A stretch of DNA of 64,000 bases from a virus. The notes under the pieces were generated by a model. It saw only the letters and a program-made list of their open reading frames with translations, had not been told where the DNA came from and searched no databases. This document shows, in pieces, positions 1,627 through 60,906 of this stretch. Position numbers and translations under genes: made by a program. The stretch is taken from UHGV virus genome UHGV-1359874, one strand, 5' to 3'. The stretch's first letter is position 1; each line of letters starts with the position of its first letter.

Positions 1627-1655
1627 GACTTCTTTTTTAAAAAATGGTATAATAA
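1627..1655 (+). promoter_or_regulatory. sigma70-like promoter TTGACT-N17-TGgTATAAT
   Basis: ttgact, 17-nt spacer, tataat with an extended -10 TG, about 25 nt upstream of the RBS ggagga of ORF 1679. The same architecture recurs at 4893 and 13113. Confidence 0.5.
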
Positions 1656-1678
1656 AATAGAATAGAAAAGGAGGATAT

Positions 1679-1981
1679 ATGTATATGACAGATAAAATTA
1701 AAGAAATGTATAATCAGCTAAATACTGTTGTATTAAATAAAGATGATTTAAATAATTTGATTAGTGAAAGAAACGATTGGGGTTATGATGCACTTTGTCT
1801 TCGTTACCAAGAATTAATTAATGAAATTGTTTATTTGAAAACATTTAGCAAAGAAGCAAAAGAAAAAGGTCACTATGGAGATTATGAATATTATAAGCAG
1901 TCCTATAGTATGCGAGCAGTTCGTTTTTATCAAGAACTAGATCGTTTTGTTGGTGGATTACATAATGATAAGATGTTATAA
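1679..1981 (+). CDS. hypothetical protein (100 aa)
   Basis: ORF with a strong RBS (aaaggagga) and a promoter just upstream. No recognisable motifs. Confidence 0.4.
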   Translation: MYMTDKIKEMYNQLNTVVLNKDDLNNLISERNDWGYDALCLRYQELINEIVYLKTFSKEAKEKGHYGDYEYYKQSYSMRAVRFYQELDRFVGGLHNDKML

Positions 1982-2126
1982 ACTTAATCCTCACGATGTT
2001 TTTACAATTTGGTGGACAGATGAAAAATACCTTATTGGATACTAATCGTAATTCATAAAACATTTTATAAAAGAATTTGGTATAAACCTAAAACTTGGTT
2101 TCAAAAATGTTATAAAGTAGAGTATA

Positions 2127-3332
2127 TTGGAGAGAAAAAATACAATGCAATTAACAACTAAACAAGAGTTAGGATTAAAGCTCGCGGTGTCTCGATATAA
2201 ACATGGAGAAAAATTCACTGTTATCAGTGGATATGCTGGTTCTGGCAAGAGCACTCTAGTTAAGTTTATCATTGATGCTATTGGACTTCCACATGATGAT
2301 ATTTGTTACGCCGCATATACTGGTAAAGCAAGTGAAGTACTCCGAAAAAAGGGTAATCCAAATGCAATGACACTTCATAAATTATTGTATGATAGTAGAC
2401 CTTTACCTAATGGCGGTTTTATTAGAACAAAGAAAATTAAAATTGAATATAAACTTGTTGTGGTTGATGAATGTTCAATGGTTCCTCAAGAGATGGTTGA
2501 ACAGCTCGCAGGCTACTATGGAGTCTATGTAATTTACCTTGGAGATCCTGGGCAAATTCCGCCTATCGACCCAAGTACCGCGAATCATCTTCTGGCTAAT
2601 CCACACGTTTTCTTGGATGAAATTATGCGGCAGGCGCAAGAAAGTGAAATTATTAGACTTTCTATGAAAATTCGTAATGGTGAAGATTTTAGTTTATTTG
2701 ATGGTAAAGATGCAAAAGTAATCACTTATGATGATTTGAATACTGGTATGCTCACTTGGGCGGATATTATTCTTAGTGCGACCAATAGAACAAGACACGA
2801 GATTAATATGCAGATGCGGGAACTCACTGGACATCTTGAAGGTAAACCAGTCGATGGTGATAAAGTAATCTGTACCCGTAACTATTGGGAAGAGCTTGGC
2901 TCAGATGAAAATCCGCTTATTAATGGTAGTATTGGATATTTGAAGGATACTTATGCAAGTTATATTAAGTATCCTAGACGTGTTAAGCGGACTTGGTTGA
3001 ATATCAATAAAAATCCTGTTGAAACACTTTGCGGCAGCTTCATCAGTGAAACTGGTGAGATCTATGAGAATAAGCAGCTCGATCTTGAAATGTTTTCAAC
3101 TGGCAAACCGCAGCTAGATTCAAAGTCAGAATTTATTCTGCATAGGACTAAGTTTAGTACACCTCTTCAGTTTGAGTATGGCTACTGCGTGACTGGTCAC
3201 AAGGCGCAGGGTAGTGAGTGGGATAAGGTACTGATACTGGAAGAAAGATTTCCATTTGACAAGGAAGAACATCAACGTTGGCTCTATACAGCTTGTACTC
3301 GTGCTTCTTCTCGACTCGTTCTAGTTCGATAA
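2127..3332 (+). CDS. SF1 DNA helicase, Dda/RecD-like
   Basis: Walker A 'GYAGSGKST', Walker B 'VVVDECSM', and C-terminal motifs 'TGHKAQGSEW' and 'YTACTRA', typical of RecD/Dda-family helicases. Confidence 0.75.
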   Translation: MERKNTMQLTTKQELGLKLAVSRYKHGEKFTVISGYAGSGKSTLVKFIIDAIGLPHDDICYAAYTGKASEVLRKKGNPNAMTLHKLLYDSRPLPNGGFIRTKKIKIEYKLVVVDECSMVPQEMVEQLAGYYGVYVIYLGDPGQIPPIDPSTANHLLANPHVFLDEIMRQAQESEIIRLSMKIRNGEDFSLFDGKDAKVITYDDLNTGMLTWADIILSATNRTRHEINMQMRELTGHLEGKPVDGDKVICTRNYWEELGSDENPLINGSIGYLKDTYASYIKYPRRVKRTWLNINKNPVETLCGSFISETGEIYENKQLDLEMFSTGKPQLDSKSEFILHRTKFSTPLQFEYGYCVTGHKAQGSEWDKVLILEERFPFDKEEHQRWLYTACTRASSRLVLVR

Positions 3333-3406
3333 TAATTGGACATTTTTATTTAATGCTCTTGTTATTATTTTTAAATACTATAACAAGAGCAAAGGAGAAG
3401 ATACGT

Positions 3407-4375
3407 ATGTCAGAAATAGATAACTATAAACAAATTCCAGTAGGAAGAGGAAAAGATTATTCTAATCAAAGAATAGGAGATTTTTTGATCTTTTTCCGAA
3501 CTGAACCACCAAAAGATAAAAACCCGAATAATGCTTATTGGCTTTGTCAATGTCAAAAATGTAAAAAATATGAAATCATTCAAGCTCCAAGAATAAGTAA
3601 AGGTATTATGAAATGTTCTTGTAGAAATGATTTAACTGGAAAAACTTTTGGAAGATGGACAGTACAATATTTATGTGAACAAAAAACAAAAAAGAGAGGG
3701 AATCTTTGGCATTGTAAATGTTTATGCGGAAATGAAAAAGACGTTCCTGCTGAAACCCTTGCACGAGGAGAGAGCCAGAGTTGTGGCTGTCTTCATAGAG
3801 AATCTGTTATAAAAATGTGCCATTCAAATAGAATTAATTTAACAGGGCAACGTTTTGGGAAACTAATTGCTTTATATCCGATTTATAGTAAAGAAAAAAA
3901 TACTCATACTAAATGGCATTGCAAATGTGACTGTGGGAATGAGTGTGATATAGATATGGGCAATCTTCGTAGTGGAAAAAGTCAGTCTTGTGGATGCACT
4001 AATTCTAAGCAAGAAGAAAAAATAATTAAATTACTTATTGAAAACAATATTTCTTTTAATTATCAAGATAATAATTTTTTAGATAAAAGTAAAAAATTTG
4101 ATTTTTATATAAAAGAAAATTTAAATGAATATATTATTGAATTTGATGGTCAACAACATTTCTTTTATACTGGAACTGGATGGGACACAAAAGAACACTA
4201 TGAAAGAACTCATAAAAACGATTTGATTAAAAATAAATATTGCTTTGATAATAGTATCCCATTAATTCGTATTCCATATGATGCAGAATATACAATAGAT
4301 GATTTAAGACTTGAAACAACAAGGTTTCTTTTAACACCTGAGAATGAAGAAGAATATTATTCCAAGAGGATGTAA
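3407..4375 (+). CDS. free-standing homing-endonuclease-like protein: tandem Cys-rich modules plus a C-terminal Vsr/DUF559-like (PD-(D/E)XK) nuclease domain
   Basis: Two repeats of 'LTGxxFGxLxV...WxCKCxCGNE...SGxSQSCGC'. C-terminus 'FDFYI...IEFDGQQHF...IPLIRIPY' resembles DUF559/Vsr endonuclease cores. The true start is probably the ATG at 3407 (RBS aaggagaag), not the 3278 start in the ORF track. It is a paralog of 14573..15574. Confidence 0.6.
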   Translation: MSEIDNYKQIPVGRGKDYSNQRIGDFLIFFRTEPPKDKNPNNAYWLCQCQKCKKYEIIQAPRISKGIMKCSCRNDLTGKTFGRWTVQYLCEQKTKKRGNLWHCKCLCGNEKDVPAETLARGESQSCGCLHRESVIKMCHSNRINLTGQRFGKLIALYPIYSKEKNTHTKWHCKCDCGNECDIDMGNLRSGKSQSCGCTNSKQEEKIIKLLIENNISFNYQDNNFLDKSKKFDFYIKENLNEYIIEFDGQQHFFYTGTGWDTKEHYERTHKNDLIKNKYCFDNSIPLIRIPYDAEYTIDDLRLETTRFLLTPENEEEYYSKRM

Positions 4376-4377
4376 AT

Positions 4378-4875
4378 ATGAAACTAGCTCTAAGCTATTT
4401 CTACCAAATCCGCAACTTTAAGCCGTACATGATTCCAGTCTCTACGGCGTTCGGAGATCCAGCCTGGTTCCATGCAGGTCTAGGTAAAACTTACAATTAC
4501 TTAGATAAAAGAGGAGTAGTAAATGGACTCCGTTGTGAAGAATTACATGGAGATAATTCATGTAATAGTGAAGTTGAAGTTACTTGTCCATGTGAATATC
4601 ATAAAGTTGGGTATCCAGGCGGGTGCCCAGCTATGGCAGAGTATCGCCAACACCTTGAAGAATTAGACCTAGATTCTTTTATAAATCGAGCTAATACTGC
4701 CGCAAATGATATTAAAACCCACCTAAGATTTAAAGAAGAACCAATAATTGTATTGATGGTTCATGAAGCACCAGATAATCCATGTAGTGAACGTCAATCA
4801 TTATTAGATTATTTTAATTCTCATAACATACCTCTTGAAGAATTAAAATATCCAATAAGTGAAAATTATATCTAA
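4378..4875 (+). CDS. hypothetical protein (165 aa); start codon lies 3 nt after the upstream endonuclease stop
   Basis: ORF only. The Cys/His pattern 'CPCEYHK...GGCP' may bind metal. No confident family assignment. Confidence 0.4.
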   Translation: MKLALSYFYQIRNFKPYMIPVSTAFGDPAWFHAGLGKTYNYLDKRGVVNGLRCEELHGDNSCNSEVEVTCPCEYHKVGYPGGCPAMAEYRQHLEELDLDSFINRANTAANDIKTHLRFKEEPIIVLMVHEAPDNPCSERQSLLDYFNSHNIPLEELKYPISENYI

Positions 4876-4892
4876 ATATAGTATTTTCTATT

Positions 4893-4921
4893 GATTTGTA
4901 GCAATATATATGGTATAATAT
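4893..4921 (+). promoter_or_regulatory. sigma70-like promoter TTGATT-N17-TGgTATAAT upstream of the polymerase gene
   Basis: ttgatt, 17-nt spacer, tataat, with an extended -10. RBS aagggagg follows before the ATG at 4953. Confidence 0.5.
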
Positions 4922-4952
4922 AATAAGAAAAGATAAAGGGAGGTTTAGGTAA

Positions 4953-7900
4953 ATGCAGCAGTATAAGCGAAGTGATATTCATAATCACTCTCGTTATTCA
5001 AATCTAAGATTGCGTGATGCGCTACCGAAGCCTAAAGATTTGATTGATAGAGCTATTGAATTAGGTCTCTCTGGCATTGCTCTGACCGATCATGAAGCAT
5101 TGAGTGGTCATGTCAAAGCAAATCAATACGCTCAAGAGATTAGAGAAAAATATCCAGATTTCAAAGTTATGCTTGGTAATGAAATTTATTTGGTTGATAA
5201 ACGTCCTAGTGATACTCATTACCATTTTATCCTTGTTGCAAAAGATATTGTTGGTCATAGACAGTTGAGAATTCTTTCAACTCTTGCTTGGCTGAATGGA
5301 TATTCTGCAAAAGGTCTATATAGAGTTGACACTTTAAAATCTGAGCTTGAAGAAGTAATTCGCAGCAACCCAGGTCATATTATTGCATCAACTGCGTGTA
5401 TTGGTAGCGAATTGGGTCAGTGTATTCTTGCTTTGACTGAAGCTGAAAAAGCACAAAATGAACAGGATAAAGAATATTGGCATAACCGCATTGTTAGTTA
5501 TATTCTTTGGCTAAAAGATTTATTCGGTGAAGATTTTTATATTGAAGCTCAACCAGGTGTATCAAAAGAGCAGTTGATTGTTAATCGCCGTATGGTTTCT
5601 ATTGCACATTGCTTCAATGTAAAAATGATTCCTACTTCTGATACACATTATTTGAAAAAGGAAGATAGATTAGTTCATAAAGCGTATCTCAATAGTGAAA
5701 ATAAAGAACGCGAAGTTGATGCTTTTTATCAGGATACTTTTCTTCATTCAAATGAAGAAATGATTGAGAAATTTGCTTTATCTGGTTATGATGAATTATT
5801 TGTACAAGAAATGTTTAAAAATTCAATGGAGATTTACAATAAAGTTGAATTTTATTCACTTGCACATTCTCAGCAGGTTCCAACAGTTGAAGTACCTTTT
5901 GTCGATAAAAAGTTGCCCCCTGCTTTTTTGAAAGATTATGAAAAACTTCAAGAGATGTATCAGTCTGACGATAAAGTTAATCGCTATTGGATTAATACTT
6001 GTATTGATAAGCTTCAAGAGCTAAATAAGCTTAATGCAGATTATCTTAATGAGCTAGAAGAAGAAGCAGAAGTTAAATATATTGTTGGTGAGCGGTTGCA
6101 CACTAATATGTTTAGTTATCCTATTACTCTTGCGCATTATATCAATAAAATTTGGGAATGCGGTTCCACCGTTGGTGCGGGCCGTGGTTCAGCTTGTGCA
6201 GCATTAAATCATTACCTTCTTGGCATCACTCAGCTAGACCCTATTGTGTGGGGTTTTCCTTTTTTCCGTTATATGAACCAGGACACGACTGAACTGGGCG
6301 ACATAGATATAGATGTGGCTCCGTCCAAAGTCCAGACAATAGTGAGCCAAATCCGCAAAGAGCGCGGTGAGAACTTTGATAAATCTATTACTAACCAGCT
6401 TATCCGCGATTCTTTAGGCGCAGTTTATGTTTGTACTTTTGGCACAGAATCAACCAAGTCCGCAATTCAAACCGCTTGTCGCGGTTATCGTAGTGAAGAA
6501 TATCCAGATGGAATTGATGTTGATACTTCTCAGTATCTATCTTCTCTTATCCCATCTGAGCGTGGATTCGTATGGAGTATAAATGACGTTATTTATGGTA
6601 ATAAAACAAAAGGAAGAAAACCAGTTCAGACTTTTATTAATGAAGTAAATCGTTATCCTGGTTTACTTGAAATTATTAAAGGTATTGATGGTTGTATTTC
6701 GCGGCGAGGTCGGCACGCATCTGGCGTAATTTTCGCAAATTCTGATCCATTTGAGTTTACCGCCTACATGAAAACACCTTCTGGCGAGATCATTACCCAG
6801 TACGACCTTCATGATCTGGAATATTGTGGCGGAGTGAAATTTGACATTCTAGTGACATCTGTTCAAGATAAACTTATCCAAACGATTGAATTGATGCAAG
6901 ATAATGGTGTTATTGAACCAGAGCTGAGTCTGCGTGAAGCATATAATAAGTATCTTCATCCAGATGTACTCCCAATTAATTCTGATAAGTGTACTTGGAA
7001 TACTATTCAGAACGCCGCAAGTTTGGATCTATTTCAGTTTGATTCTGATATTGGTAGACAAGGTGCAAAACGAGTAAAACCGCAAAATATGCAAGAGCTA
7101 AGTGCAACCAATGGTTTGATTCGTCTGATGACTACTGAACAAGGCGCAGAAACTTGGCTAGATAAATTCTGTCGATATAAGGCAGATCATAAAGAATTTG
7201 AGCGAGACACTGCAAAATATCATTTAACTGAACAGGATAAAATTGCTCTTGGTGAATATCTTAATAGTACTTATGGTATTGGTATTTCTCAGGAACAAAT
7301 GATGCGGGTTCTTATGGATACTAGAATTTGCGGTTTCAGCTTGAAAGAAGCAAACGCTGCAAGACGTGTTATTTCAAAGAAAAAAATGGATAAAATTCCC
7401 GCTTTGAAAGAACAAATTTTCGCAACCGCAAAGCATGAGGGCCTAGCTCAATACATTTGGGATTTCGTTGTTGGTCCAGGTACTGGTTATGCTTTTTCAG
7501 ACATTCACTCAACCTCTTACAGTTTCATTGGGTTTCAGACTGCATATCTTGCAACTCATTGGAATCCTATTTTTTGGAATACAGCTTGTCTGATTGTAAA
7601 TAGTGGTTCACTTGAATCTAATTTAGCAGCAAATGAAAAAGAAAATGGAACAGATTATATTAAACTTGCTAAAGCTATTGGAGCAATTCGTTCTAGTGGT
7701 ATTGCAGTTTCTCTTGTTGATATTAATCATTCTGATTATGGCTTTAAGCCAGATGTAAAGAATAATATCATTCGTTTTGGTCTTAAAGGATTGAACAGTG
7801 TAAATATGGATGTAATTGATGAAATTATTCATCATCGTCCATATACGGGAATTGTTGATTTTATGAATCGCTGTCCAATGAAAAAAACTGTTATGATTTC

Positions 7901-8885
7901 TCTTATTAAGTCTGGCGCATTTGATGAACTTGATGAGCATTGGGCAAAAGTAGTTAATCCTGAACCTCGTTACGCAATTATGGGTTATTACATTTCAAAA
8001 ATTTCTGAGCCTAAAAAAAGACTTACAATGCAGAATTTCAATGGATTAATTCAGAAGAATCTGTTGCCGCAAGATTTAAACTTTGAAATTAGAGTATTTA
8101 ACTTTAATAAATATCTTAAAGCATATTGTAAAAAAGGTTCTTATTTTATCTTTGATGACTCTTGCATGAAGTTTTATTCTGAATTTTTTGATATGGATAA
8201 GATAAATGTGATTAATGGTATTAATTGTATTAATCAAAATACTTGGAAAAAGATTTATGACTCAGCGATGGCTAAAGCAAAAGAATGGTTGAAGGAGCAT
8301 CAAGAGGAAACATTAGCAGCTATGAATGAGGCATTATTTGTGGAATGCTGGAATAAATATGCTACTGGTAATATTTCTTCTTGGGAAATGGATAGTTTAT
8401 GTTTCTATTATCATCCACATGAATTAATTAATGTAGATAAAAATAAATATGGAATTGTTGATTTTGATAATCTGTCGCCGCAATCTGATGTTGATTATTA
8501 TTTCAAACGTAACGGTAGAGAAATTCCTGTTTATAAGATTTATCGCATTATTGGTACAGTAATTGGTAAGAATGATACTCGTTCTTCTATTTCACTTTTA
8601 ACAACAAGCGGCGTTGTTAATGTAAAGTTTACTAAAGAATATTATGCAATGGCAAATCGCCAAATTTCTCAGGTAAATCCTGATGGAACGAAGTCTATTA
8701 TTGAAAAGAGCTGGTTCAGACGCGGTTCTCGCATTCTTGTAGCTGGTTATCGGCGGGATGATACATTTACCGCAAAAACATATAGCAAAACTATTGGGCA
8801 TCAGTTATATTTGATTACTAATGTTAAAGGAAAGGATATTGAATTAAAGTATGGCAGAGCAGGTCAAGAAGAAGATGAAGGGTGA
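4953..8885 (+). CDS. DnaE-type (family C) DNA polymerase III alpha-like replicative polymerase
   Basis: N-terminal PHP domain ('DIHNHSRYS', 'LTDHEALSGH'). Palm motif 'GSTVGAGRGSACAALNHYLLGITQLDP' matches DnaE 'PGRGSAAGS..ALGIT..DP'. Length of 1310 aa is similar to SPbeta YorL. Confidence 0.85.
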   Translation: MQQYKRSDIHNHSRYSNLRLRDALPKPKDLIDRAIELGLSGIALTDHEALSGHVKANQYAQEIREKYPDFKVMLGNEIYLVDKRPSDTHYHFILVAKDIVGHRQLRILSTLAWLNGYSAKGLYRVDTLKSELEEVIRSNPGHIIASTACIGSELGQCILALTEAEKAQNEQDKEYWHNRIVSYILWLKDLFGEDFYIEAQPGVSKEQLIVNRRMVSIAHCFNVKMIPTSDTHYLKKEDRLVHKAYLNSENKEREVDAFYQDTFLHSNEEMIEKFALSGYDELFVQEMFKNSMEIYNKVEFYSLAHSQQVPTVEVPFVDKKLPPAFLKDYEKLQEMYQSDDKVNRYWINTCIDKLQELNKLNADYLNELEEEAEVKYIVGERLHTNMFSYPITLAHYINKIWECGSTVGAGRGSACAALNHYLLGITQLDPIVWGFPFFRYMNQDTTELGDIDIDVAPSKVQTIVSQIRKERGENFDKSITNQLIRDSLGAVYVCTFGTESTKSAIQTACRGYRSEEYPDGIDVDTSQYLSSLIPSERGFVWSINDVIYGNKTKGRKPVQTFINEVNRYPGLLEIIKGIDGCISRRGRHASGVIFANSDPFEFTAYMKTPSGEIITQYDLHDLEYCGGVKFDILVTSVQDKLIQTIELMQDNGVIEPELSLREAYNKYLHPDVLPINSDKCTWNTIQNAASLDLFQFDSDIGRQGAKRVKPQNMQELSATNGLIRLMTTEQGAETWLDKFCRYKADHKEFERDTAKYHLTEQDKIALGEYLNSTYGIGISQEQMMRVLMDTRICGFSLKEANAARRVISKKKMDKIPALKEQIFATAKHEGLAQYIWDFVVGPGTGYAFSDIHSTSYSFIGFQTAYLATHWNPIFWNTACLIVNSGSLESNLAANEKENGTDYIKLAKAIGAIRSSGIAVSLVDINHSDYGFKPDVKNNIIRFGLKGLNSVNMDVIDEIIHHRPYTGIVDFMNRCPMKKTVMISLIKSGAFDELDEHWAKVVNPEPRYAIMGYYISKISEPKKRLTMQNFNGLIQKNLLPQDLNFEIRVFNFNKYLKAYCKKGSYFIFDDSCMKFYSEFFDMDKINVINGINCINQNTWKKIYDSAMAKAKEWLKEHQEETLAAMNEALFVECWNKYATGNISSWEMDSLCFYYHPHELINVDKNKYGIVDFDNLSPQSDVDYYFKRNGREIPVYKIYRIIGTVIGKNDTRSSISLLTTSGVVNVKFTKEYYAMANRQISQVNPDGTKSIIEKSWFRRGSRILVAGYRRDDTFTAKTYSKTIGHQLYLITNVKGKDIELKYGRAGQEEDEG

Positions 8886-9216
8886 TCCTGTAAATCACCC
8901 TGCTCATTATGAACGCGAAGGTGCAATGGAGTGCATTGATGAGATGCTTTTGATATTTGGTAAAGAAGCAGTTATGAATTTTTGCTTATGTAATGCTTGG
9001 AAGTATCGGTATCGAGCTTCAGCTAAGAATGGAGACGAGGATTATTCCAAGAGTGACTGGTACTTACGAAAATATCGTGAGTTAAAAGAAGGAGTAAATA
9101 AGTCAGAAGCTCCTTCTCAAGAGGATCATGGTAAACTTAATGGTTTTTATGGTTATCCATCTTTTCCTAATGCAGGTTTGTCAACCACAAGTTTATCAAA
9201 TTATAATCCTAATTGA
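8851..9216 (+). CDS. DUF3310-like phage protein (hypothetical); overlaps the polymerase 3' end
   Basis: 'VNHPAHY...GAMECID' resembles the HPSHY/IE.ID signature I associate with DUF3310. Family recalled from memory, not verified. Confidence 0.35.
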   Translation: MAEQVKKKMKGDPVNHPAHYEREGAMECIDEMLLIFGKEAVMNFCLCNAWKYRYRASAKNGDEDYSKSDWYLRKYRELKEGVNKSEAPSQEDHGKLNGFYGYPSFPNAGLSTTSLSNYNPN

Positions 9217-9308: not shown

Positions 9309-11120
9309 ATGCAGAATATTATTAAGAGAGATGGCACAACTCAGCCATTTAATAAATTTAAAATTGTAGATGCGGTATTAGCCGCATTCAAGGCTGTAGA
9401 TGGAGACATTTCAGAATATGCTGAAGTTAAGGCGGGTAATATCGCTGATTTCATTGAAGAAAAGGCCGAAAAGAAACAGCTTACTATTGAAGAAATTCAG
9501 GATTATGTCGAACGTGGTCTTTCCAGCACTAAACGGAAGGATGTAGCTAAAGCATTCATTCTTTATAGAGAAAAGCGTAATCAAGCAAGAGGAAATGTAA
9601 TTGATGATGCAGTTATGGAATTGCTTGATGGTACGAATGAATATTGGAAAACTGAAAATTCTAATAAAGATGCGGATGTTGTAACTGTCCAACGTGATTA
9701 TCTAGCTGGTATTATTAGTACAGATATTAGCCGTCGCAAGATTCTTACATCCGACATTTGTGAAGCACATGATGCTGGTATTATTCATGAACATGACATG
9801 GACTATCTCGCACAAAATGCTCTTTCAAACTGTTGTCTTATTAATGCAGAAGATATGTTGCAGAATGGCACTGTTATTAATGGTATCCGCATTGACCCTC
9901 AACATCGTTTATCTACAGCTACTACTGTATTGACCCAGATTATCACTGCAGTAGCCAGCTCACAGTACGGTGGTTGTACCATTTCTCTGACTCATCTAGC
10001 TCCCTATGTGCGAATGAGTTATAAAGATTATATTAGAAAATATATTGATTGGGGATTCGATACTGAGAAGGCAAAAGAATTCGCTAAGAAGGATTTAGCC
10101 AAGGAAATTCGTGATTCGGTTCAAACTTTTAATTATCAGATTAATTCTATGAGCACAACTAACGGTCAGGCCCCTTTCCTCTCCGTTTGTATGTATCTAG
10201 GTGAAACGGATGAATATAAACCAGAACTAGCTATGCTTATCGAAGAATTCCTTCGTCAACGTATTCTTGGTATGAAGAATGAAAAGGGAGTATATATTAC
10301 ACCCGCTTTTCCGAAATTACTTTATGTACTTGAAGAAGACAATATTCATGCGGATAGCAAGTATTTTTACTTAACAGAACTTGCCGCAGAATGTACAGCA
10401 AAACGTCTTGTTCCTGATTATATTTCAGAAAAAGTTATGAAGCAAAACAAGATTAATCCTACTACTGGCAAAGGTGAAGCTTATCCATGTATGGGATGTA
10501 GATCTTTCTTAACTCCAGACCGCACCACTAAGAATTATGCCCGCGCATTAAATTATAAAGAGGGTCAGGGGAAATATTATGGTCGCTTTAATATGGGTGT
10601 TACTACAATTAATCTTCCTGATATTGCATTTTCTTCAAAAGGTGATTTTGAACTGTTTTGGAAACTTTTTGATGAGCGTACTGAACTTTGTCATAAAGGT
10701 TTAAAAGTTCGTATCAAGAGACTTGAAAATGTAACTTCTGATGTCGCACCTATTCTTTGGCAGGATGGAGCATTTGCTAGACTTAATAAACATGAATCTA
10801 TTAAAGAACTGCTTCATCATGGATATGCAACTGCTTCTCTTGGTTATGCTGGACTTTATGAATGCGTAAAGTATATGACTGGTCATTCTCATTCAGATGG
10901 CGGCGTAGGCGAACTCTTTGGCTTAGAGGTAATGCAAGCACTTAATGATAAATGTAATGAATGGAAACGGCAAGAAGATATTGATTATTCTCTTTACGGC
11001 TCTCCTATCGAGTCAACTACTTACAAATTTGCTAAATGTTTAAAGAAGCGATTTGGTGATGATATTTTTATTAAACTTGACGGTTTTGATAGAAATTATA
11101 TAACTAATAGCTACCATTAA
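9309..11120 (+). CDS. nrdD: anaerobic ribonucleoside-triphosphate reductase NrdD, exon 1 (ATP-cone plus catalytic barrel; C-terminal glycyl-radical domain missing)
   Basis: N-terminal ATP-cone 'IIKRDGTTQPFNKFKI'. Length and composition fit class III RNR. The ORF stops before the Zn-ribbon and glycyl-radical region, which is found 1.1 kb downstream. Confidence 0.8.
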   Translation: MQNIIKRDGTTQPFNKFKIVDAVLAAFKAVDGDISEYAEVKAGNIADFIEEKAEKKQLTIEEIQDYVERGLSSTKRKDVAKAFILYREKRNQARGNVIDDAVMELLDGTNEYWKTENSNKDADVVTVQRDYLAGIISTDISRRKILTSDICEAHDAGIIHEHDMDYLAQNALSNCCLINAEDMLQNGTVINGIRIDPQHRLSTATTVLTQIITAVASSQYGGCTISLTHLAPYVRMSYKDYIRKYIDWGFDTEKAKEFAKKDLAKEIRDSVQTFNYQINSMSTTNGQAPFLSVCMYLGETDEYKPELAMLIEEFLRQRILGMKNEKGVYITPAFPKLLYVLEEDNIHADSKYFYLTELAAECTAKRLVPDYISEKVMKQNKINPTTGKGEAYPCMGCRSFLTPDRTTKNYARALNYKEGQGKYYGRFNMGVTTINLPDIAFSSKGDFELFWKLFDERTELCHKGLKVRIKRLENVTSDVAPILWQDGAFARLNKHESIKELLHHGYATASLGYAGLYECVKYMTGHSHSDGGVGELFGLEVMQALNDKCNEWKRQEDIDYSLYGSPIESTTYKFAKCLKKRFGDDIFIKLDGFDRNYITNSYH

Positions 11121-12235
11121 TTGGATAGTGGCTTAATATAGTGATATATTAAGAAAACCTTGTGAACTCTTTTAGAGGTGTCAGATTAAAAATCTGGCTA
11201 ACGGTTCAGAAGTAAGAAATTACAATATGAGTAAGGGAACCTAAGTCTTTAATAAAATAAAGATATGGTAATACCGTGCTAAGTTTGTTTTGTTCAATAA
11301 TAAAAAAATAAAGAAAGGAGGAAAAAAATGGGTAGACCGCCTAAATATATCATTAATATTGGAAATATTTATGATGATTATAAATGTATAGACATCATTC
11401 AAGAAACAACTGGTCAAAAAAGAAAAAAATATATTATGAAATGTCAAAAATGCGAAAAAGTAAAATCTATGTTAGGTTCAACAGTTGGATTGCATAAAGG
11501 AACAAAACATAAAAGCTGTGGAAAAGGATTAGGAATTACTTATGATGAATATTTTTATAAACGTTGGAAATCAATGAGAGCTAGAACTTCTCCAAATTTT
11601 TGGAATAGAGAAAATTATTATGATAGAGGTATTAACAGTGATGCTTTTGAAAGTTTCATAGATTTCTATAACGCAATGTATGAATCATGGAAAGCTCATG
11701 TAGCCATCTATGGAGAGCATGATACTTCTTTAGAACGTATAGATGTTGACAAGCCTTATACACCAGAAAATTGTTGTTGGATATGTCTTGATGAACAAAG
11801 AGGAAATTTACAAAAGACAAATTATTTTACAGTTGAAAATATTGAAACTGGAGAAATAGAGTATTGTAAAAATGCTTTACAATATACTTATGACCATCCA
11901 GAAATTCCTCATAGATACATATATGATTTATTGAAGTATAACAGAACTTATAAAGGTAAAAAATTTACTAAAATAACTAAGCAAGATTTTGAAAAATATA
12001 AAAAATCTCTAATTATTGAACAAACTTAAAAGTGTAACGACTATCGAAAGCCCATTATAGAAGAAAAATCTATAACTGGAAGTGAGTAGAGTAGTTCATT
12101 ATTGAACGAAGTGCAAGGATTCTATAATTCGGTAACAGAATAATAGAATATGAGATAGTCTATTCCCTCTTAAATATCAAGAAATTGAGGGTATAAAAGA
12201 TTCCTGTTTTTGAGAAAATTGATGCGTTCTCTAAG
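11121..12235 (+). mobile_element. putative group I intron interrupting nrdD, carrying an HNH homing-endonuclease ORF (boundaries approximate)
   Basis: A 1.1-kb non-coding and ORF-containing gap lies between two NrdD fragments. An R/P7-like element 'GTAACGACTATCG' sits at ~12034, just after the HEG stop. This is analogous to the T4 nrdD (sunY) intron. Confidence 0.65.
11328..12029 (+). CDS. intron-encoded HNH homing endonuclease
   Basis: HNH_3-type motif 'LERIDVDKPYTPENCCWICLDEQRGN'. Strong RBS aaaggagg. Located inside the nrdD gap. Confidence 0.7.
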   Translation: MGRPPKYIINIGNIYDDYKCIDIIQETTGQKRKKYIMKCQKCEKVKSMLGSTVGLHKGTKHKSCGKGLGITYDEYFYKRWKSMRARTSPNFWNRENYYDRGINSDAFESFIDFYNAMYESWKAHVAIYGEHDTSLERIDVDKPYTPENCCWICLDEQRGNLQKTNYFTVENIETGEIEYCKNALQYTYDHPEIPHRYIYDLLKYNRTYKGKKFTKITKQDFEKYKKSLIIEQT

Positions 12236-14158: not shown

Positions 14159-14395
14159 ATGTTTATTAAAATTAAGTATTTTGATGAATCAATGCCTAAA
14201 CTTGAATTTATCGAAGGTAAGAAATCTGATTGGATTGATTTGCGGGCAGCTGAGGAACTCTTTATTCCTGCTAATACTTTTGCAATGATTCATCTGGGAG
14301 TAGCCATGAAGCTACCTGAAGGTTATGAAGCTCATATTGCACCTCGTTCCTCAACTTTCAAGAAATGGGGAATCATTCAGGTTAACTCTGTCGGT
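14159..14395 (+). CDS. dut: dUTPase exon 1 (motifs I-II and the start of motif III)
   Basis: 'WIDLRAAEE' (motif I-like), 'IAPRSSTFKKWGI' (motif II), ends '...QVNSVG' in the middle of motif III (G|VIDxDY). Confidence 0.75.
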
Positions 14396-15764
14396 AAATA
14401 AAAATTCCTAAAAAAGTTTGGTCGAAGTTCTTTCACCGGCGTAAGATAAAATTCATATAATAATGAAAAATAAAAGAAAAAGGAGTTTTGTCTTATAGCT
14501 ACTAAAACTATTAATTTTGGAACGGATGAATTTTTTATTTCTAAATATAAAGAATTAAAAAGTTCAAGAAAAATGGGAGAATTTTTTGACTGTAATAAAA
14601 CTTCTGTTTTAAATCATTGTAAAAAAATTGGATTTGATCCAAAAAGTCTTCAATCTCCTAAGTTAACAGAAAAACAAAAACAAGAAATTATTTCTTTATA
14701 TGAAGAAAAAACAGCTTCAGAATTAGCTAAAGTATATAATGTTTCAGATAGTTTAATCTCAAAAGTTTGGATGGAGGCTGGCAAAAGAGGAAAAAAACGA
14801 GTAGGTTGGTGCCATGATTTAACAGGACAAACTTTTGGCTATTTAACTGTTATTGAAAAAACAGATAAAAGAGGTCCAAGTGGCGGAGTTATTTGGAAAT
14901 GCTCTTGTAATTGTGGATTACCTTCTTGTTTAAAAGAAAAAGATATTCTTGGAGCTACTTTATTAGAAGGAAAAACGATTTCTTGCGGAGCAGTAGGAAA
15001 AAAGAATTTAGAAAAAGGAAGAGAAGTAAAAAATTTAATTGGTCAAAAATTTGGTCATTTAACAGTGATAAAAAGAGCTGAAAATAAAATTTTCCCTTCT
15101 GGATATTCTGCTTCTCAATGGTTATGTAAATGTGACTGCGGCAATGAAACAATTATTCTTGGAAGCAACTTAATTTCAGGGAATAGCCAATCTTGCATTT
15201 ATTGCAAAAAATCTCATGGAGAAAATAAAATTGAAGAACTTTTAAAAGAAAATAAACTTTCTTTTACTAGAGAACAAAGATTTGATACTTGTAAAAATAT
15301 TAGACCTTTACCTTTTGACTTTTATGTAAATAATCAATATTTAATAGAATTTGATGGTAAGCAGCATTTTGAAGCAACAGGTGAAAGATTTAATGAAGAA
15401 GTTGTACAAGATATTCAAAAAAGAGATAGCATAAAGAATGAATGGTGTAAAAAAAATAATATTCCACTAATTCGTATTCCTTATTCTCATTATAATGATT
15501 TAAAAATTGAAGATTTATTACTTGAAACTACAACTTTCTTAGTCAATAATGCCGACATAAAATCGCGGAATTAAGCGGGAAAGCTGAGATGCTAATCCGA
15601 ACCGAAGGCTAGGTTCAGCCTAGTCAGGGGCAACGCATAGGGAGTGAAAAGATATAATCTCCCCACGAGGCCGCGATACTTAAAAAGTAAAAAGATATGC
15701 TGAACTTATACAAATAAGAAGTATAAGAATTATAGGATAAAAAGCCTATAAGATAACATAAATG
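14396..15764 (+). mobile_element. putative group I intron in dut carrying a DUF559/Vsr-like homing-endonuclease ORF
   Basis: A 1.37-kb insert splits dUTPase motif III. The 5' splice site follows a U (ggt|) and the insert ends in G (..aatg|gtt). The 3' part (15575-15700) is a GC-rich structured segment containing 'GCGGGAAAGC' (P-element-like) and 'GGTTCAGCCTAGTCAGG'. Confidence 0.6.
14573..15574 (+). CDS. intron-encoded homing-endonuclease-like protein (Cys-rich tandem modules plus Vsr/DUF559-like nuclease); paralog of 3407..4375
   Basis: Repeats 'LTGQTFGYLTVI...WKCSCNCG' and 'LIGQKFGHLTVI...WLCKCDCGNE...SGNSQSC'. C-terminus 'PFDFYV...IEFDGKQHF...IPLIRIPY'. Confidence 0.6.
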   Translation: MGEFFDCNKTSVLNHCKKIGFDPKSLQSPKLTEKQKQEIISLYEEKTASELAKVYNVSDSLISKVWMEAGKRGKKRVGWCHDLTGQTFGYLTVIEKTDKRGPSGGVIWKCSCNCGLPSCLKEKDILGATLLEGKTISCGAVGKKNLEKGREVKNLIGQKFGHLTVIKRAENKIFPSGYSASQWLCKCDCGNETIILGSNLISGNSQSCIYCKKSHGENKIEELLKENKLSFTREQRFDTCKNIRPLPFDFYVNNQYLIEFDGKQHFEATGERFNEEVVQDIQKRDSIKNEWCKKNNIPLIRIPYSHYNDLKIEDLLLETTTFLVNNADIKSRN

Positions 15765-15962
15765 GTTATTGATGAGTCCTATGCGGGAGATGGGGACGAG
15801 TGGATGATGCCTGTATATGCAATCCGTGACACCAATATCCACAAGGGTGATCGCGTATGTCAGTTCCGTATCATGGAAAAGCAGCCCGCTGTACAGTTTG
15901 TTGAAGTTAAGCATCTTGAAGATGAAAATCGCGGTGGATTTGGTTCTACTGGCTCTAACTAA
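15765..15962 (+). CDS. dut: dUTPase exon 2 (motifs III-V)
   Basis: '[13 protein letters not shown]' (motif III continuation), 'KGDRVCQF' (motif IV), '[10 protein letters not shown]' (motif V). Confidence 0.75.
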
Positions 15963-56792: not shown

Positions 56793-57160
56793 TTACCATC
56801 CATATGCAGCTTTCATTATATAGTCATAATTTAAAATATTTTCATGCCAATATGGAATTAACAGTAATTTAATATTGTGCTTACGGCAATACTCTCGTTT
56901 AAGCATATCATGATATTGCTGCTTTCTTAATCCAGCCTCGCCGCCAAATTTAGACTTAGCTTGGAAGTGTTGAATACCTTGGTATTCAATTAAGAACTCA
57001 AGTTCACCTTCGTCATCAAAAACTGCGAAATCAAAACTATCGCAAAGGATGCCCAGTCTGAGTATATAAATCTCTAAAACTATATTCTTCTTGAAACTTC
57101 AATCCAGCATCATGTAAAATATCTTCGATTTTTATTTCAGCTCTTGAACTCCTCAATTTA
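56793..57160 (-). pseudogene. frameshifted remnant of a DUF559/Vsr-like homing-endonuclease nuclease domain
   Basis: Minus-strand translation gives '...AEIKIEDILHDAGLKFQEEYSF...GHPLR*' then, after a 1-nt frame shift, 'FDFAVFDDEGELEFLIEYQGIQHF...HNIKLLLIPYW'. This is homologous to the C-terminal domains of 3407..4375 and 14573..15574. There is no ATG start and it is not in the ORF track. Confidence 0.55.
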
Positions 57161-58099: not shown

Positions 58100-58991
58100 C
58101 TTTTATTCTTGTACTGTTTCGCTAACAGTTTCTTCAACTTTCATTGAAGGTGAGACTATATCTTCAGTATATCTCCATATATAACCTTTAAAAGTTTTTA
58201 GTTTACCTCGACAGCACTCTCCGATATGAGTTCCCTTTGAAGCTCCTATGGCTCTAGCCGCCGCGTTGGTAGAAGGATAAGTCATAATATATTTTCCATT
58301 TAAATCATATTGATTAACTTCTTTAGCCTTACCATTATTTGTATAATTCTTGGTTTCACCTAAAACAGTTTCTCTAGACCAATAAAAATTTCCTTTTAAA
58401 CTTTTTATATTTGTAAATAATTCTTGTTTAATAGTAGACTCGCTAATTCCAACAGCTTTTGCCGCTTCTGAAATTGTTCTGTATTCAGCAATTAATTTTT
58501 TATCTTTGTTAAAACAATATACATGAGGAAATTTCTTCAATTCATACTTCATTGAATGATGAACATTTTCCAGAGAAGTACACCATTCTAAATTATCTAC
58601 ATAGTTATTAGTTTTATCTCCATCAATATGATTTACTTGATTTCTCTTTGGATTATCATTTGGAATATAAGCTAAAGCAACCATACGATGAGCATAAACT
58701 CTTTTTTTAGAGCCATCTGGTAAAGTAATATTGTAACTTAAATAACCATTTTTGTAATTGTACTGGCCTTTTAAATATTTGTCAGTTTTACTATTATAAC
58801 ATTTTCCATCTTCAGTTATATAATACCAGGTACTGATATTATCAACAATAATTTGTCTCATAATAACAACCTTTCTTTTTTTCATACTGTGCTGTACTGG
58901 CTTCGCTTGAAGCCGTTAGTCGTTGAACCTTCTTCACTAGAATAATGAAGCTCGGCTGCTGATTGCCCAATCTAGTTAATTTTTAAAACAT
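58100..58991 (-). mobile_element. putative group I intron no. 2 in terL with an HNH HEG (boundaries approximate)
   Basis: The gap between TerL ATPase and nuclease fragments contains an R/P7-like core 'GGTTCAACGACTAACGG' (minus strand, plus-strand coordinates 58907-58924) and the HNH ORF. Confidence 0.6.
58103..58885 (-). CDS. intron-encoded HNH homing endonuclease (HNH plus C-terminal HTH)
   Basis: 'YAHRMVALAYIPNDNPKRNQVNHIDGDKTNNYVDNLEWCTSLEN' HNH_3 motif. 'ISEAAKAVGISESTI' NUMOD1-like HTH. Confidence 0.7.
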   Translation of the reverse strand: MKKRKVVIMRQIIVDNISTWYYITEDGKCYNSKTDKYLKGQYNYKNGYLSYNITLPDGSKKRVYAHRMVALAYIPNDNPKRNQVNHIDGDKTNNYVDNLEWCTSLENVHHSMKYELKKFPHVYCFNKDKKLIAEYRTISEAAKAVGISESTIKQELFTNIKSLKGNFYWSRETVLGETKNYTNNGKAKEVNQYDLNGKYIMTYPSTNAAARAIGASKGTHIGECCRGKLKTFKGYIWRYTEDIVSPSMKVEETVSETVQE

Positions 58992-59735
58992 TCATATTTT
59001 GCAATATTGTAGTTTAACTAGCTCTAAGGGGTTTCCAGCAATTCTCAGCAATTTAAAGAGTACATATCCTTTATACTCTCTGGCGAATGAGTCCTCTGCA
59101 TAAGTTCCCTGGAGTTTCAGAGTATCAACAAAATCTTCATCCAACAAACCTTCTATTACAGGTGTTTCATAAGTGCCACCAATAATCATAACCTCATTCG
59201 GTTCAATAATAGACTGAATCAAAAGCTCAATTAATTTAGAGTAGGCAAAAGAATTCTTCCAGCCTGCTGTAGTGATATATATCTGACTTTTGTTTACTGT
59301 CTCTTTGGGGTCACGCGTACCATCAGGAAGCAATCGGTTAACGTTTGTAGTAGGAATAACGATTTCATTCAACGCGGTTTGATCAATAAGAACGCACTCT
59401 TCCATTAGACCACCAACTCGGCGCTGACCACGAGAAGATTCACGAGCCGCGAGAATGTCAATAGAAGAACCATTTTTAAAAAGATATTTAACACTATCTT
59501 TTGATTTTGTTGATTTGCCCTTTTCCCAGTTTATTTCATTGTTCAATGCGGGGATAAGTCGGCATATCTCCTCGATCTTCGCGATCGTGATGCTAGCTGC
59601 TTGTTCTTTTCCGCCCGTCGTTACGAACAAGTTCGCACCCGGATAGAGAATACAACGAAGCATTAATACCATCATAGATAGGAATGATTTTGAATCTTTA
59701 TATTCTATTAAGTTCGCAAAACTTAATACGTTTTT
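58992..59735 (-). CDS. terL: large terminase, exon 2 (ATPase domain, post-Walker A); the 5' boundary lies within 59676..59735
   Basis: In-frame upstream extension gives 'KDSKSFLSMMVLMLRCILYPGANLFVTTGGKEQAASI', which is collinear with T4 gp17 '[29 protein letters not shown]'. Confidence 0.6.
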   Translation of the reverse strand, partial: KNVLSFANLIEYKDSKSFLSMMVLMLRCILYPGANLFVTTGGKEQAASITIAKIEEICRLIPALNNEINWEKGKSTKSKDSVKYLFKNGSSIDILAARESSRGQRRVGGLMEECVLIDQTALNEIVIPTTNVNRLLPDGTRDPKETVNKSQIYITTAGWKNSFAYSKLIELLIQSIIEPNEVMIIGGTYETPVIEGLLDEDFVDTLKLQGTYAEDSFAREYKGYVLFKLLRIAGNPLELVKLQYCKI

Positions 59736-60906
59736 TAAAAACTGCTTATAATTTCTTATAAGAATAGACTATTTCACATTTTACTTTTTAGTAAAACCTC
59801 TCCATTTCGATTTAAGGGGTTTTCACCCACCTCATAAGCTTAGGCCCTACTCCTATTGTTTCTATTATACCCCGGAAACTAAAGGATAGTCGTTGAAGTT
59901 TATTATTCTTTGTACCTAAAATGGAATCCTCCATGAGATTTATTAATTCCTCTGCAAACTTTAGAGATAGTACTTCCGTCTAAATGAAGTTCTCTTGCTG
60001 CTTCTGCACAAGAAGGAAAACTTCTAATGAATTTATCATCTAAAGTTAGCTGTTCAACTTCTTTACAAGAAGAATTAACTTTTTGAACATAATAGGCTTG
60101 TTTTACATTTTCTGAACACGTTAATAATCTTAAATTATCTAATCTATTATTTAATTTATTAGTGTCTTTATGGTCAATAATATGTCCTTCCGGAATCTCA
60201 TCTAAATCATTAAAAACACAATAAATTAATCTATGCACTAACATATCTTTTACTTGACCATTTTTACTTAGTCTAACTTTATAATATCCATTCGTTAAAC
60301 TTGGTTTTAACAATCTGAAAGTTTCATCATTTCTAATTCTTCCTTTTGAAGAAACAGAATAATGATATTTTGGAATTTTCTTCCATATCTCATTATCTAA
60401 ATTTTCTTTAAAAAATTCAGATTTTTGTCGTTCTTTAATTAAATTATTTTGATGTGCATGAGAAATATTTTCAGAATAAGTCACCCATTCAAGATTACTA
60501 ACTTCATTATTTAATTTATTCCCATCCTTATGATTTACCACAGGTAAATTATTTGGATTAGTAATAAAATATTCAGCTACTAGCCTATGAGCATAAAACA
60601 TTTTTTTATTACCATCTTTTGATAATCTATAATATTTATAACCATTTTCACCAATACTACCTTTTAAAACTTTATTAGTAGTTTTATTTAAAACATCACC
60701 ATTATCATAAATAAAATATTGTTCATACTCTTTAATTCTTTTTCTCATTTCTAGAACTCCTTTATTTAAGAATAATCTTACCTGCAGATTCCCTTGTCCA
60801 AGAAAACCTTCCTTAAGGTCTTTCACATATTTTTGGATTTAGAGTTCCTGCAATTAAAAGAGTTTGTCCAGAAAATTATATTAATTTTCGTTGGCGCATT
60901 TTCATA
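59736..60906 (-). mobile_element. putative group I intron no. 1 in terL with a double-HNH HEG (boundaries approximate)
   Basis: Splits terL at the Walker A P-loop. R/P7-like core 'CTTCAACGACTATCC' (minus strand, plus-strand coordinates 59878-59895) lies just after the HEG stop. Confidence 0.6.
59903..60826 (-). CDS. intron-encoded HNH homing endonuclease (two HNH modules plus a C-terminal HTH)
   Basis: 'YAHRLVAEYF...VVNHKDGNKLNNEVSNLEWVTYSEN' and 'LVHRLIYCVF...IDHKDTNKLNNRLDNLRLLTCSEN'. C-terminus 'AARELHLDGSTISKVCRG'. Confidence 0.7.
   Translation of the reverse strand: MKDLKEGFLGQGNLQVRLFLNKGVLEMRKRIKEYEQYFIYDNGDVLNKTTNKVLKGSIGENGYKYYRLSKDGNKKMFYAHRLVAEYFITNPNNLPVVNHKDGNKLNNEVSNLEWVTYSENISHAHQNNLIKERQKSEFFKENLDNEIWKKIPKYHYSVSSKGRIRNDETFRLLKPSLTNGYYKVRLSKNGQVKDMLVHRLIYCVFNDLDEIPEGHIIDHKDTNKLNNRLDNLRLLTCSENVKQAYYVQKVNSSCKEVEQLTLDDKFIRSFPSCAEAARELHLDGSTISKVCRGINKSHGGFHFRYKE

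Follow-up and report, generated by a model that had tools for sequence, protein, structure and literature searches.

Phage homing-endonuclease-like genes that join arrays of a Cys-rich module to a Vsr-like nuclease

Two paralogous genes in a phage genome

We analysed a 64,000-nucleotide stretch of the virus genome UHGV-1359874 (hereafter the window), an AT-rich, phage-like sequence with a GC content of 33.5%; a search for near-identical DNA among the INPHARED phage genomes gave no match to it. The window encodes two proteins, ORF1 (322 amino acids; positions 3407-4375) and ORF2 (333 amino acids; 14573-15574), in which tandem Cys-rich modules precede a C-terminal Vsr-like nuclease domain, and both genes are present as an earlier note on this DNA, made from the sequence alone, had described them. 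ORF1 is, as the note also stated, a free-standing gene between the helicase gene (2127-3332) and the polymerase gene (4953-8885), with a 165-amino-acid open reading frame (orf165; 4378-4875) intervening before the polymerase. ORF2 lies inside an insertion in the dut gene. The two genes, which together with their parts described below are on the + strand, are paralogs (42% identity across 252 amino acids, E value 8e-49). We compared the window with 80 related IMG/VR loci, which were retrieved through the helicase gene. One of these relatives, IMGVR_UViG_3300045988_126685 (hereafter the sister phage), is approximately the same phage (helicase 97.7% and polymerase 99.2% identical; described here as 96-99% identical) and has no ORF1. 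Its stretches are labelled L006 (helicase-polymerase region), L086 (dut) and L212 (terminase).

ORF1 contains three Cys-rich modules: M0 (residues 20-74; positions 3464-3628; CxCxxC...CxC; domain E value 2.5e-20 with a hidden Markov model (HMM) of the module), M1 (residues 74-131; 3626-3799; CxCxCG...SCGC; 1.1e-25) and M2 (residues 143-200; 3833-4006; 5.5e-29). ORF2 contains two, M1 (residues 81-142; 14813-14998) and M2 (residues 153-214; 15029-15214), with domain E values of 5e-19 and 1.1e-19; the last Cys of M1 is replaced (SCGA) and an insertion in this module carries an extra Cys, and M2 ends in SCIYC. The earlier count of two modules per protein therefore holds for ORF2 and falls one short for ORF1, in which N-terminal residues 20-74 had been overlooked. 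The repeat nature of the modules in both proteins lies far beyond chance (domain E values 1e-19 to 5.5e-29), and in an alignment the units of ORF1 and ORF2 share one register: G-x-[FWL]-x-V, a β-hairpin, W-x-C-x-C-x-C-G, L-x-x-G and S-C-G-C. All 15 module cysteines of ORF1 are invariant among 31 homologs with 57-77% identity (C47, C49, C52, C70 and C72 in M0; C103, C105, C107, C126 and C128 in M1; C172, C174, C176, C195 and C197 in M2). Conservation within the ORF1 family is highest in the nuclease domain and the adjoining M2, and lowest in M0 and M1.

An AlphaFold2 model of ORF1, for which the 31 homologs served as input, had a mean predicted local distance difference test score (pLDDT) of 87. 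In the modelled module CxC sits on strand 2, the turn that follows holds the third Cys, and CGC comes directly before the linker helix. Its fold resembles generic SH3/Tudor-like barrels and has no close structure in the PDB; RAP domains were another group among the top-ranked matches in the analysis of the ORF1 model. ORF2 additionally has a weak N-terminal helix-turn-helix (HTH)-like segment (residues 28-68; 14654-14776), which scored E values of 0.017 with Pfam CENP-B_N, 0.11 with Sigma70_r4 and 0.0046 with phrog_323 and is locally similar to one HTH repeat of the homing endonuclease I-Bth0305I (E value 0.015). No HTH match was found in ORF1. We ruled out that ORF2 starts further upstream, since the candidate ATG (14526) lies in another frame.

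The nuclease domain

The C-terminal domains of ORF1 (3998-4372) and ORF2 (15209-15571; nuclease HMM E value 2.2e-46) have the Vsr-type nuclease fold. In ORF1 the domain carries E203, D232, E245, D247, H251, D272 and K275, and the composite motif E...D...x...H...D is present as E203/E204, D232, position 247 (x), H251 and D272. Across 274 homologous domains, D232, E245, H251, D272 and K275 are essentially invariant (E245 in all 274), whereas position 247 is D, Q, N or H, as expected for the variable residue of the EDxHD motif. Every catalytic residue is also kept in 119 close homologs of ORF1. The earlier proposal that both proteins end in a common Vsr/DUF559-like nuclease core is thus borne out, with its catalytic residues intact.

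The EDxHD family, in which Vsr-like nucleases carry an N-terminal DNA-binding region, was predicted in 2009 (PMC2677866), and its prototype, I-Bth0305I, was characterized in 2011, with an active site of E170, D196, N208 (the 'x'), H213 and D222 (PMC3239194). A glutamate that is invariant where Vsr has Phe62 has been reported for the family (PMC2677866), and E245 is its counterpart. We took the I-Bth0305I gene sequence from phage 0305phi8-36 and aligned it with ORF1 using hhalign. The alignment spanned the whole domain (E value 0.0059, probability 6%) and placed E204, D232, D247 and D272 of ORF1 on E170, D196, N208 and D222 of I-Bth0305I, with the His shifted by one residue; a homolog search to build an I-Bth0305I profile returned only 2 proteins. 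The same region of the phrog_559 profile matched I-Bth0305I (E value 2.7e-11), ORF1 (4e-30) and ORF2 (1.7e-34), as well as a third nuclease gene of the window described below. We therefore file the nuclease of ORF1 and ORF2 as a putative divergent branch of the Vsr-like/EDxHD nucleases. The earlier statement that the architecture belongs to none of the classic homing-endonuclease families was wrong for the nuclease, which we place in the EDxHD family (PMC2677866, PMC3239194); only the DNA-binding part differs.

A cassette between the helicase and polymerase genes

Alignment with the sister phage delimits a cassette at ORF1 (3290-4377, + strand; blastn against L006) that comprises ~43 diverged nucleotides at the end of the helicase gene, then a leader of 74 nt, and ORF1 itself. 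Window positions 1633-3289 correspond to L006 6490-8145 (96.5% identity) and positions 4378-9000 to L006 8197-12819 (98.6%), whereas the intervening 1,088 bp (3290-4377) are replaced by 51 bp in the sister phage. The right junction coincides exactly with the ATG of orf165. On the left, the final ~60 nt of the helicase gene are diverged between the two phages, which is the trace that co-conversion or target immunity would be expected to leave.

The distribution of ORF1 among relatives is sporadic, with an ORF1-like gene in the helicase-polymerase gap of 6 of the 80 loci. ORF1-like genes always start ~70-90 nt past the helicase stop codon, and their right-hand neighbours vary and include GIY-YIG genes. 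Close ORF1 homologs are 65-67% identical, as against 49-52% for the adjoining helicases, and the nucleotide identity between homologs is maximal (80-89%) within the nuclease domain. Directly 5′ of the ORF1 ribosome-binding site we found a stem-loop (3354-3391, + strand; predicted RNA folding energy -19.4 kcal/mol, z -3.7), which recurs before the ORF1 homolog in the related locus L003 and not in L004. The hairpin may serve in translational control or as a terminator, and would travel with the gene; similar hairpins have been described at free-standing Vsr-like genes (PMC2677866). Judged by these sequence comparisons, the ORF1 cassette bears the marks of a free-standing homing gene, whose target probably lies in or beside the 3′ end of the helicase gene.

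We also asked how ORF1 would fare as a gene that has ceased to be selfish and is retained as a nuclease useful to the phage, for example for competitor exclusion or DNA processing. The retention of all catalytic residues in the 119 close homologs and the constant locus of the gene would suit such a role. However, ORF1 is missing from the 96-99% identical sister phage and from most relatives and is therefore dispensable, and its conservation above that of the flanking core genes is a signature of horizontal spread; free-standing homing genes, moreover, act by marker exclusion anyway. We consider retention for the benefit of the phage improbable, and favour the homing gene.

Within this phage group, insertions have a hot spot in the helicase-polymerase interval, where we observed GIY-YIG genes and assorted small open reading frames (for example L003:10374-11099, L333:2684-3343 and L334:2204-2863); a GIY-YIG gene also splits the polymerase gene in L003. 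For two ORF1 homologs (P0069 and P0099) in loci L329-L334, the translation of the gene at the locus differs from the query, although coordinates and lengths agree.

An intron-like insertion in dut

The dut gene of the window consists of exon 1 (14159-14395, + strand), which ends in ...GTCGGT, and exon 2 (15765-15962, + strand), separated by a 1,369-nt insertion (14396-15764, + strand). The sister phage lacks the insertion: its dut gene (L086) is contiguous and 99% identical, and the alignment breaks exactly at 14395|15765. The empty site in the sister phage, at about 4237/4238 of L086, reads AACTCTGTCGGT|GTCGTGGATGAG, in which GTCGTG takes the place of GTTATT in the filled allele. The earlier placement of ORF2 inside a dut intron is accordingly confirmed as far as the insertion goes, and the insertion would be removed by splicing. 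More generally, the proposal that ORF1 and ORF2 are homing-endonuclease-like and sit at sites of mobile insertion stands, as the sister phage lacks both at exact junctions.

The insertion is preceded by U and terminates in G. A candidate internal guide sequence, AAUAAU-GCCGAC (15545-15556, + strand), pairs at 6 of 6 positions both with the start of exon 2 (first 6 nt; P10) and with the end of exon 1 (last 6 nt; P1), where a U.G pair occupies the splice site. ORF2 homologs with 52-55% identity lie between two dut halves in three other phages (L246-L248), whose dut exons are ~35% identical to those of the window at the protein level and whose inserts are clearly homologous. Across the four introns the guide reads 5′-AAU(A/G)AU-GCCGAC-3′, pairs at 6 of 6 positions with exon 1 and at 5-6 of 6 with exon 2, and its A/G difference tracks a U/C difference in exon 2, that is, a compensatory change. 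The top-scoring guide candidate falls at the homologous place in all four, ~1,140-1,160 nt into the insert; it overlaps the 3′ end of the open reading frame in the window and follows just after the stop codon in two of the other introns. Because the guide lies at or after the end of the reading frame, ORF2 would sit in the P1 loop, as do the Vsr-like reading frames of recA introns (PMC2677866). The 3′ part of the insert (15549-15764, + strand), which overlaps the end of ORF2, is conserved and structured and may form the ribozyme core: RNAalifold predicted 46 pairs, 12 of them with compensatory changes, in an alignment of only 4 introns. With its U|...G| boundaries, guide pairing and covarying stems, the insertion behaves as a putative group I intron.

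The alternative is a 'fractured gene', in which the insertion stays unspliced and two polypeptides are made around a free-standing endonuclease gene, an arrangement known for genes with Vsr-like endonucleases (PMC2677866). No Rfam group I covariance model matched the insertion, either at the gathering threshold or at E values up to 10, and the final three nucleotides of each of the four inserts are an ATG or TTG in frame with exon 2 (15762-15764 in the window; L246-L248). The miss may be explained by the 1-kb reading frame in the P1 loop and by the divergence of phage introns; the terminal ATG or TTG perhaps merely reflects the conserved 3′ G, although it would allow exon 2 to be translated on its own. 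Against a fractured gene, the boundaries, the P1/P10 guide with its compensatory change and the covarying core are indicative of a ribozyme, exon 2 has no evident ribosome-binding site ahead of it, and the split falls inside the conserved dUTPase motif NSVG|VID. We regard a fractured dut gene as very unlikely, and read the insertion as a group I-like intron that encodes an endonuclease.

The Cys module in other proteins

A profile of the module with 58 positions was next run against the representatives of 1.84 billion clusters (50% identity). It matched 88,560 proteins at E values up to 1e-3 and 27,415 at E values up to 1e-10, with 1 to 11 copies per protein and a repeat period of 56-70 residues. 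The five cysteines, for which we call the unit the Cys5 module, are 98-100% conserved among 720 instances in the 150 best-scoring proteins, and so are G5, F8, G9, L11, W28, G35, L45 and S52. Of these 150 proteins, 44 end in this Vsr-like nuclease, 54 consist of modules only and 52 have other C-terminal regions. The other partners include HNH-type nucleases (4, 3, 2 and 1 in the individual Pfam families, with possible overlap), AP2 (5), MTES_1575 (2), HTH_3, T5orf172, MUG113 and Mom.

Among deposited phages, ORF1 as query retrieved 285 records, mostly from phages of Staphylococcus, Streptococcus, Enterococcus, Lactococcus and Bacillus. The products are variously named HNH endonuclease, homing endonuclease, AP2 domain protein or hypothetical protein; 'hypothetical' is also what source records call the module proteins. 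A consensus module dimer, used as query against genome assemblies, found the module in Clostridia, Bacilli, Bradyrhizobium, Syntrophaceae, Muribaculaceae and two archaeal metagenome-assembled genomes. Some Proteobacteria are among its carriers. Pfam-A, NCBIfam and PADLOC gave no match to the module regions of ORF1 and ORF2 at E values up to 1, the matches of module-only proteins to curated models at E values up to 10 were all short or spurious, and PADLOC gave no meaningful match to a defence system. PHROGs 374 and 559, labelled 'HNH endonuclease', do span the modules. Literature searches by motif and by topic found no paper that describes the module.

A zinc-finger-like domain is a compact unit with at least four invariant ligand residues, and the Cys5 module has this pattern. 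From this ligand pattern and the fusion partners we infer that the modules bind zinc and DNA. The earlier comparison with modular NUMOD/AP2 arrays is apt in that the module is shared among unrelated nuclease classes, for which it would provide DNA binding. Tentatively, and with low confidence, we suggest that the Cys5 module might be a widespread, undescribed, repeat-based DNA-recognition unit of phages and mobile elements, each copy of which reads a few bases. It is an equally speculative extension that 2-11 copies in a row would together specify a long target and that at least three unrelated nuclease folds have recruited the module.

Proposed mode of action

Taken together, we consider it likely that ORF1, as a free-standing gene, and ORF2, in the P1 loop of the dut group I intron, encode Vsr-like (EDxHD) homing endonucleases. 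An N-terminal array of Cys-rich, presumably zinc-binding β-modules would hold the protein on a long DNA site, to which the HTH would add in ORF2, and the C-terminal Vsr-fold domain would cut. D232 and D272 would bind Mg2+ and H251 would act as the general base, with E245 as the additional acidic residue that Vsr-like homing enzymes typically have; judging from I-Bth0305I, the enzymes would probably act as dimers. The predicted targets are the empty alleles of related phages, namely the intron-less dut site ...AACTCTGTCGGT|GTCGTGGATGAG... for ORF2 and, for ORF1, either the helicase 3′ end or the point where helicase and orf165 adjoin. During co-infection, repair from the element-bearing genome would copy in the element together with a short flank.

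Several observations weigh against this interpretation. The hhalign probability against the single I-Bth0305I sequence was low (6%), and phmmer and hmmsearch searches of the PDB with ORF1, ORF2 and the nuclease-domain profile gave only chance matches and no link to I-Bth0305I. Pfam places I-Bth0305I in DUF559 but ORF1 and ORF2 only in sub-threshold DUF2726 or DUF5889, and because of this split the window's enzymes would form a separate branch. The Rfam search of the dut insertion was negative, as described above, and the sister phage that supplies the empty alleles is a metagenome assembly. Finally, since the specificity of I-Bth0305I comes mostly from its nuclease dimer, the modules may add little specificity of their own.

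This last point leads to a different view of the modules, as non-specific DNA clamps or as structural or dimerization zinc domains, with specificity residing in the nuclease dimer. In I-Bth0305I, contacts beyond the central 14 bp are largely non-specific and have been assigned to the N-terminal region (PMC3239194). The module fold is like that of generic SH3/Tudor-like barrels, and conservation in the ORF1 family is concentrated in the nuclease and M2 rather than in M0 and M1. On the other hand, the partners of the module, which occurs in 1 to 11 copies, include at least three nuclease folds unrelated to one another as well as AP2 or HTH domains; this is the pattern of a targeting module and not of a partner dedicated to a single catalytic domain. 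We regard a clamp role as possible although doubtful, and give it this much weight because of the dimer-borne specificity of I-Bth0305I and the conservation pattern of the ORF1 family. The module array as the DNA-holding part of a homing endonuclease remains our preferred interpretation.

Other nuclease genes and insertions in the window

A third nuclease gene lies between the terminase and portal genes (56793-57156, - strand). It is a stand-alone Vsr-like gene of ~120 amino acids with a good ribosome-binding site and a TTG start; comparison with intact homologs shows that an insertion of 4 nt (ATAG, about 57037-57040) splits it over two frames. The insertion is common to the window and the sister phage; as the latter contig was assembled independently, a sequencing error was ruled out as the source of the frameshift. 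The gene has thus been inactivated in this lineage. The earlier note had taken it for a frameshifted, nuclease-only, decayed copy of the modular architecture, of which the frameshift is correct and the decay is not. A paralog of ORF1 and ORF2 decaying after loss of its modules would account for the frameshift and for the shared fold family and PHROG profile region. Yet the gene is only 25% identical to the ORF1 nuclease domain, has its own ribosome-binding site and start codon, and has intact homologs (117-120 amino acids, 65-75% identity) that in 79 of 80 related contigs lie between the genes for the terminase large subunit and the portal. We find a decayed paralog scarcely credible. Given the low identity and the intact syntenic homologs, the gene is instead a distinct, conserved, stand-alone member of the superfamily. 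Its EYQG motif, which corresponds to EFDG, differs at the variable 'x' position, where Q also occurs in about half of the diverse module-array nucleases. Two homologs of this gene (L176:2647-2997 and L196:3001-3351) have in-frame TAG codons where relatives have Glu codons, which could be stop-codon reassignment or could mark pseudogenes.

A further insertion, of 1,084 bp (11119-12202) and missing from the sister phage, interrupts the anaerobic ribonucleotide reductase gene nrdD. It contains an open reading frame (11328-12029, + strand) for an HNH-type nuclease with one weak Cys-module-like segment, which was marginal with the module HMM (independent E value 0.17). This reading frame matched phrog_374 ('HNH endonuclease'; E value 1.3e-15) over the profile region that the ORF1 modules also match. 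We take the insertion for a probable further intron that encodes an endonuclease of its own.

Two interruptions break up the terminase large-subunit gene. The first interruption (58100-59071) holds a reading frame for an I-HmuI-like endonuclease with HNH and NUMOD1 domains (58103-58885, - strand), and the sister phage is contiguous at this site. The second (59696-60897) holds a double-HNH reading frame (59903-60826, - strand; phrog_59 E value 8.5e-81), and the sister phage has a different insert of ~960 bp there (L212:561-1521). The gap between the RecJ-like and helicase genes is ~380 bp longer in the sister phage (L006:6109-6489) than in the window (about 1633-1701), and 69 nt of window sequence at this junction are common to both alignment blocks.

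Relation to known systems

I-Bth0305I and its EDxHD relatives (PMC2677866, PMC3239194; PDB 3r3p) are the closest parallel to ORF1 and ORF2. They share the C-terminal Vsr-fold nuclease with E...D...x...H...D and the extra glutamate, an N-terminal DNA-binding region (predicted here), the phrog_559 profile region, and a life both as P1-loop reading frames in phage group I introns and as free-standing genes preceded by a hairpin. They differ in the DNA-binding part, which consists of two NUMOD2-type HTH motifs in I-Bth0305I but of a Cys5 β-module array here, with one weak HTH in ORF2; in the insert between the His and the last Asp (9 residues in I-Bth0305I, 21 here); in Pfam assignment (DUF559 as opposed to the sub-threshold families named above); and in target, which is recA for I-Bth0305I and would be dut and the helicase 3′ flank here. 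Phage 0305phi8-36, which carries the I-Bth0305I gene, also encodes two paralogous proteins, gp9 and gp10 (L002:943-2226), annotated 'Cys-rich, may contain zinc fingers'; their repeats are C..C...H..H-like, unlike the Cys5 module. E. coli Vsr (PDB 1cw0), by contrast, is a single-domain repair nickase for T:G mismatches, with His64 where the window's enzymes and their relatives have D, Q or N and Phe62 where they have Glu.

As for the modules, NUMOD-containing endonucleases (I-TevI, I-HmuI) and AP2-HNH proteins likewise combine small DNA-binding modules in variable number with different nuclease cores. The Cys module is unrelated in sequence to NUMOD1-4 and AP2, is cysteine-rich and mostly β, and stands N-terminal to the nuclease. 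With C2H2 zinc-finger arrays and transcription activator-like effectors (TALEs) it shares a small unit repeated head to tail (here with a 56-70-residue period and up to 11 copies) and joined to effector domains, but its fold and Cys5 ligand pattern differ, and the reading of a fixed number of base pairs per module would be conjecture here.

The nuclease class and its intron-borne and free-standing lifestyles were already known, and what is new is the fusion to an abundant, uncurated Cys5 array. EDxHD nucleases would thus use a second, entirely different DNA-targeting device. The module itself, found in 88,560 clusters with neither a family model nor a close solved structure, is among the more abundant uncurated domains encountered here. 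The window and the sister phage provide filled and empty alleles of both elements, resolved to the single base, and thereby defined substrates on which cleavage, homing and splicing could be tested directly. If the modules do read bases, nature would have supplied in them an equivalent of zinc-finger or TALE arrays that could be re-engineered.

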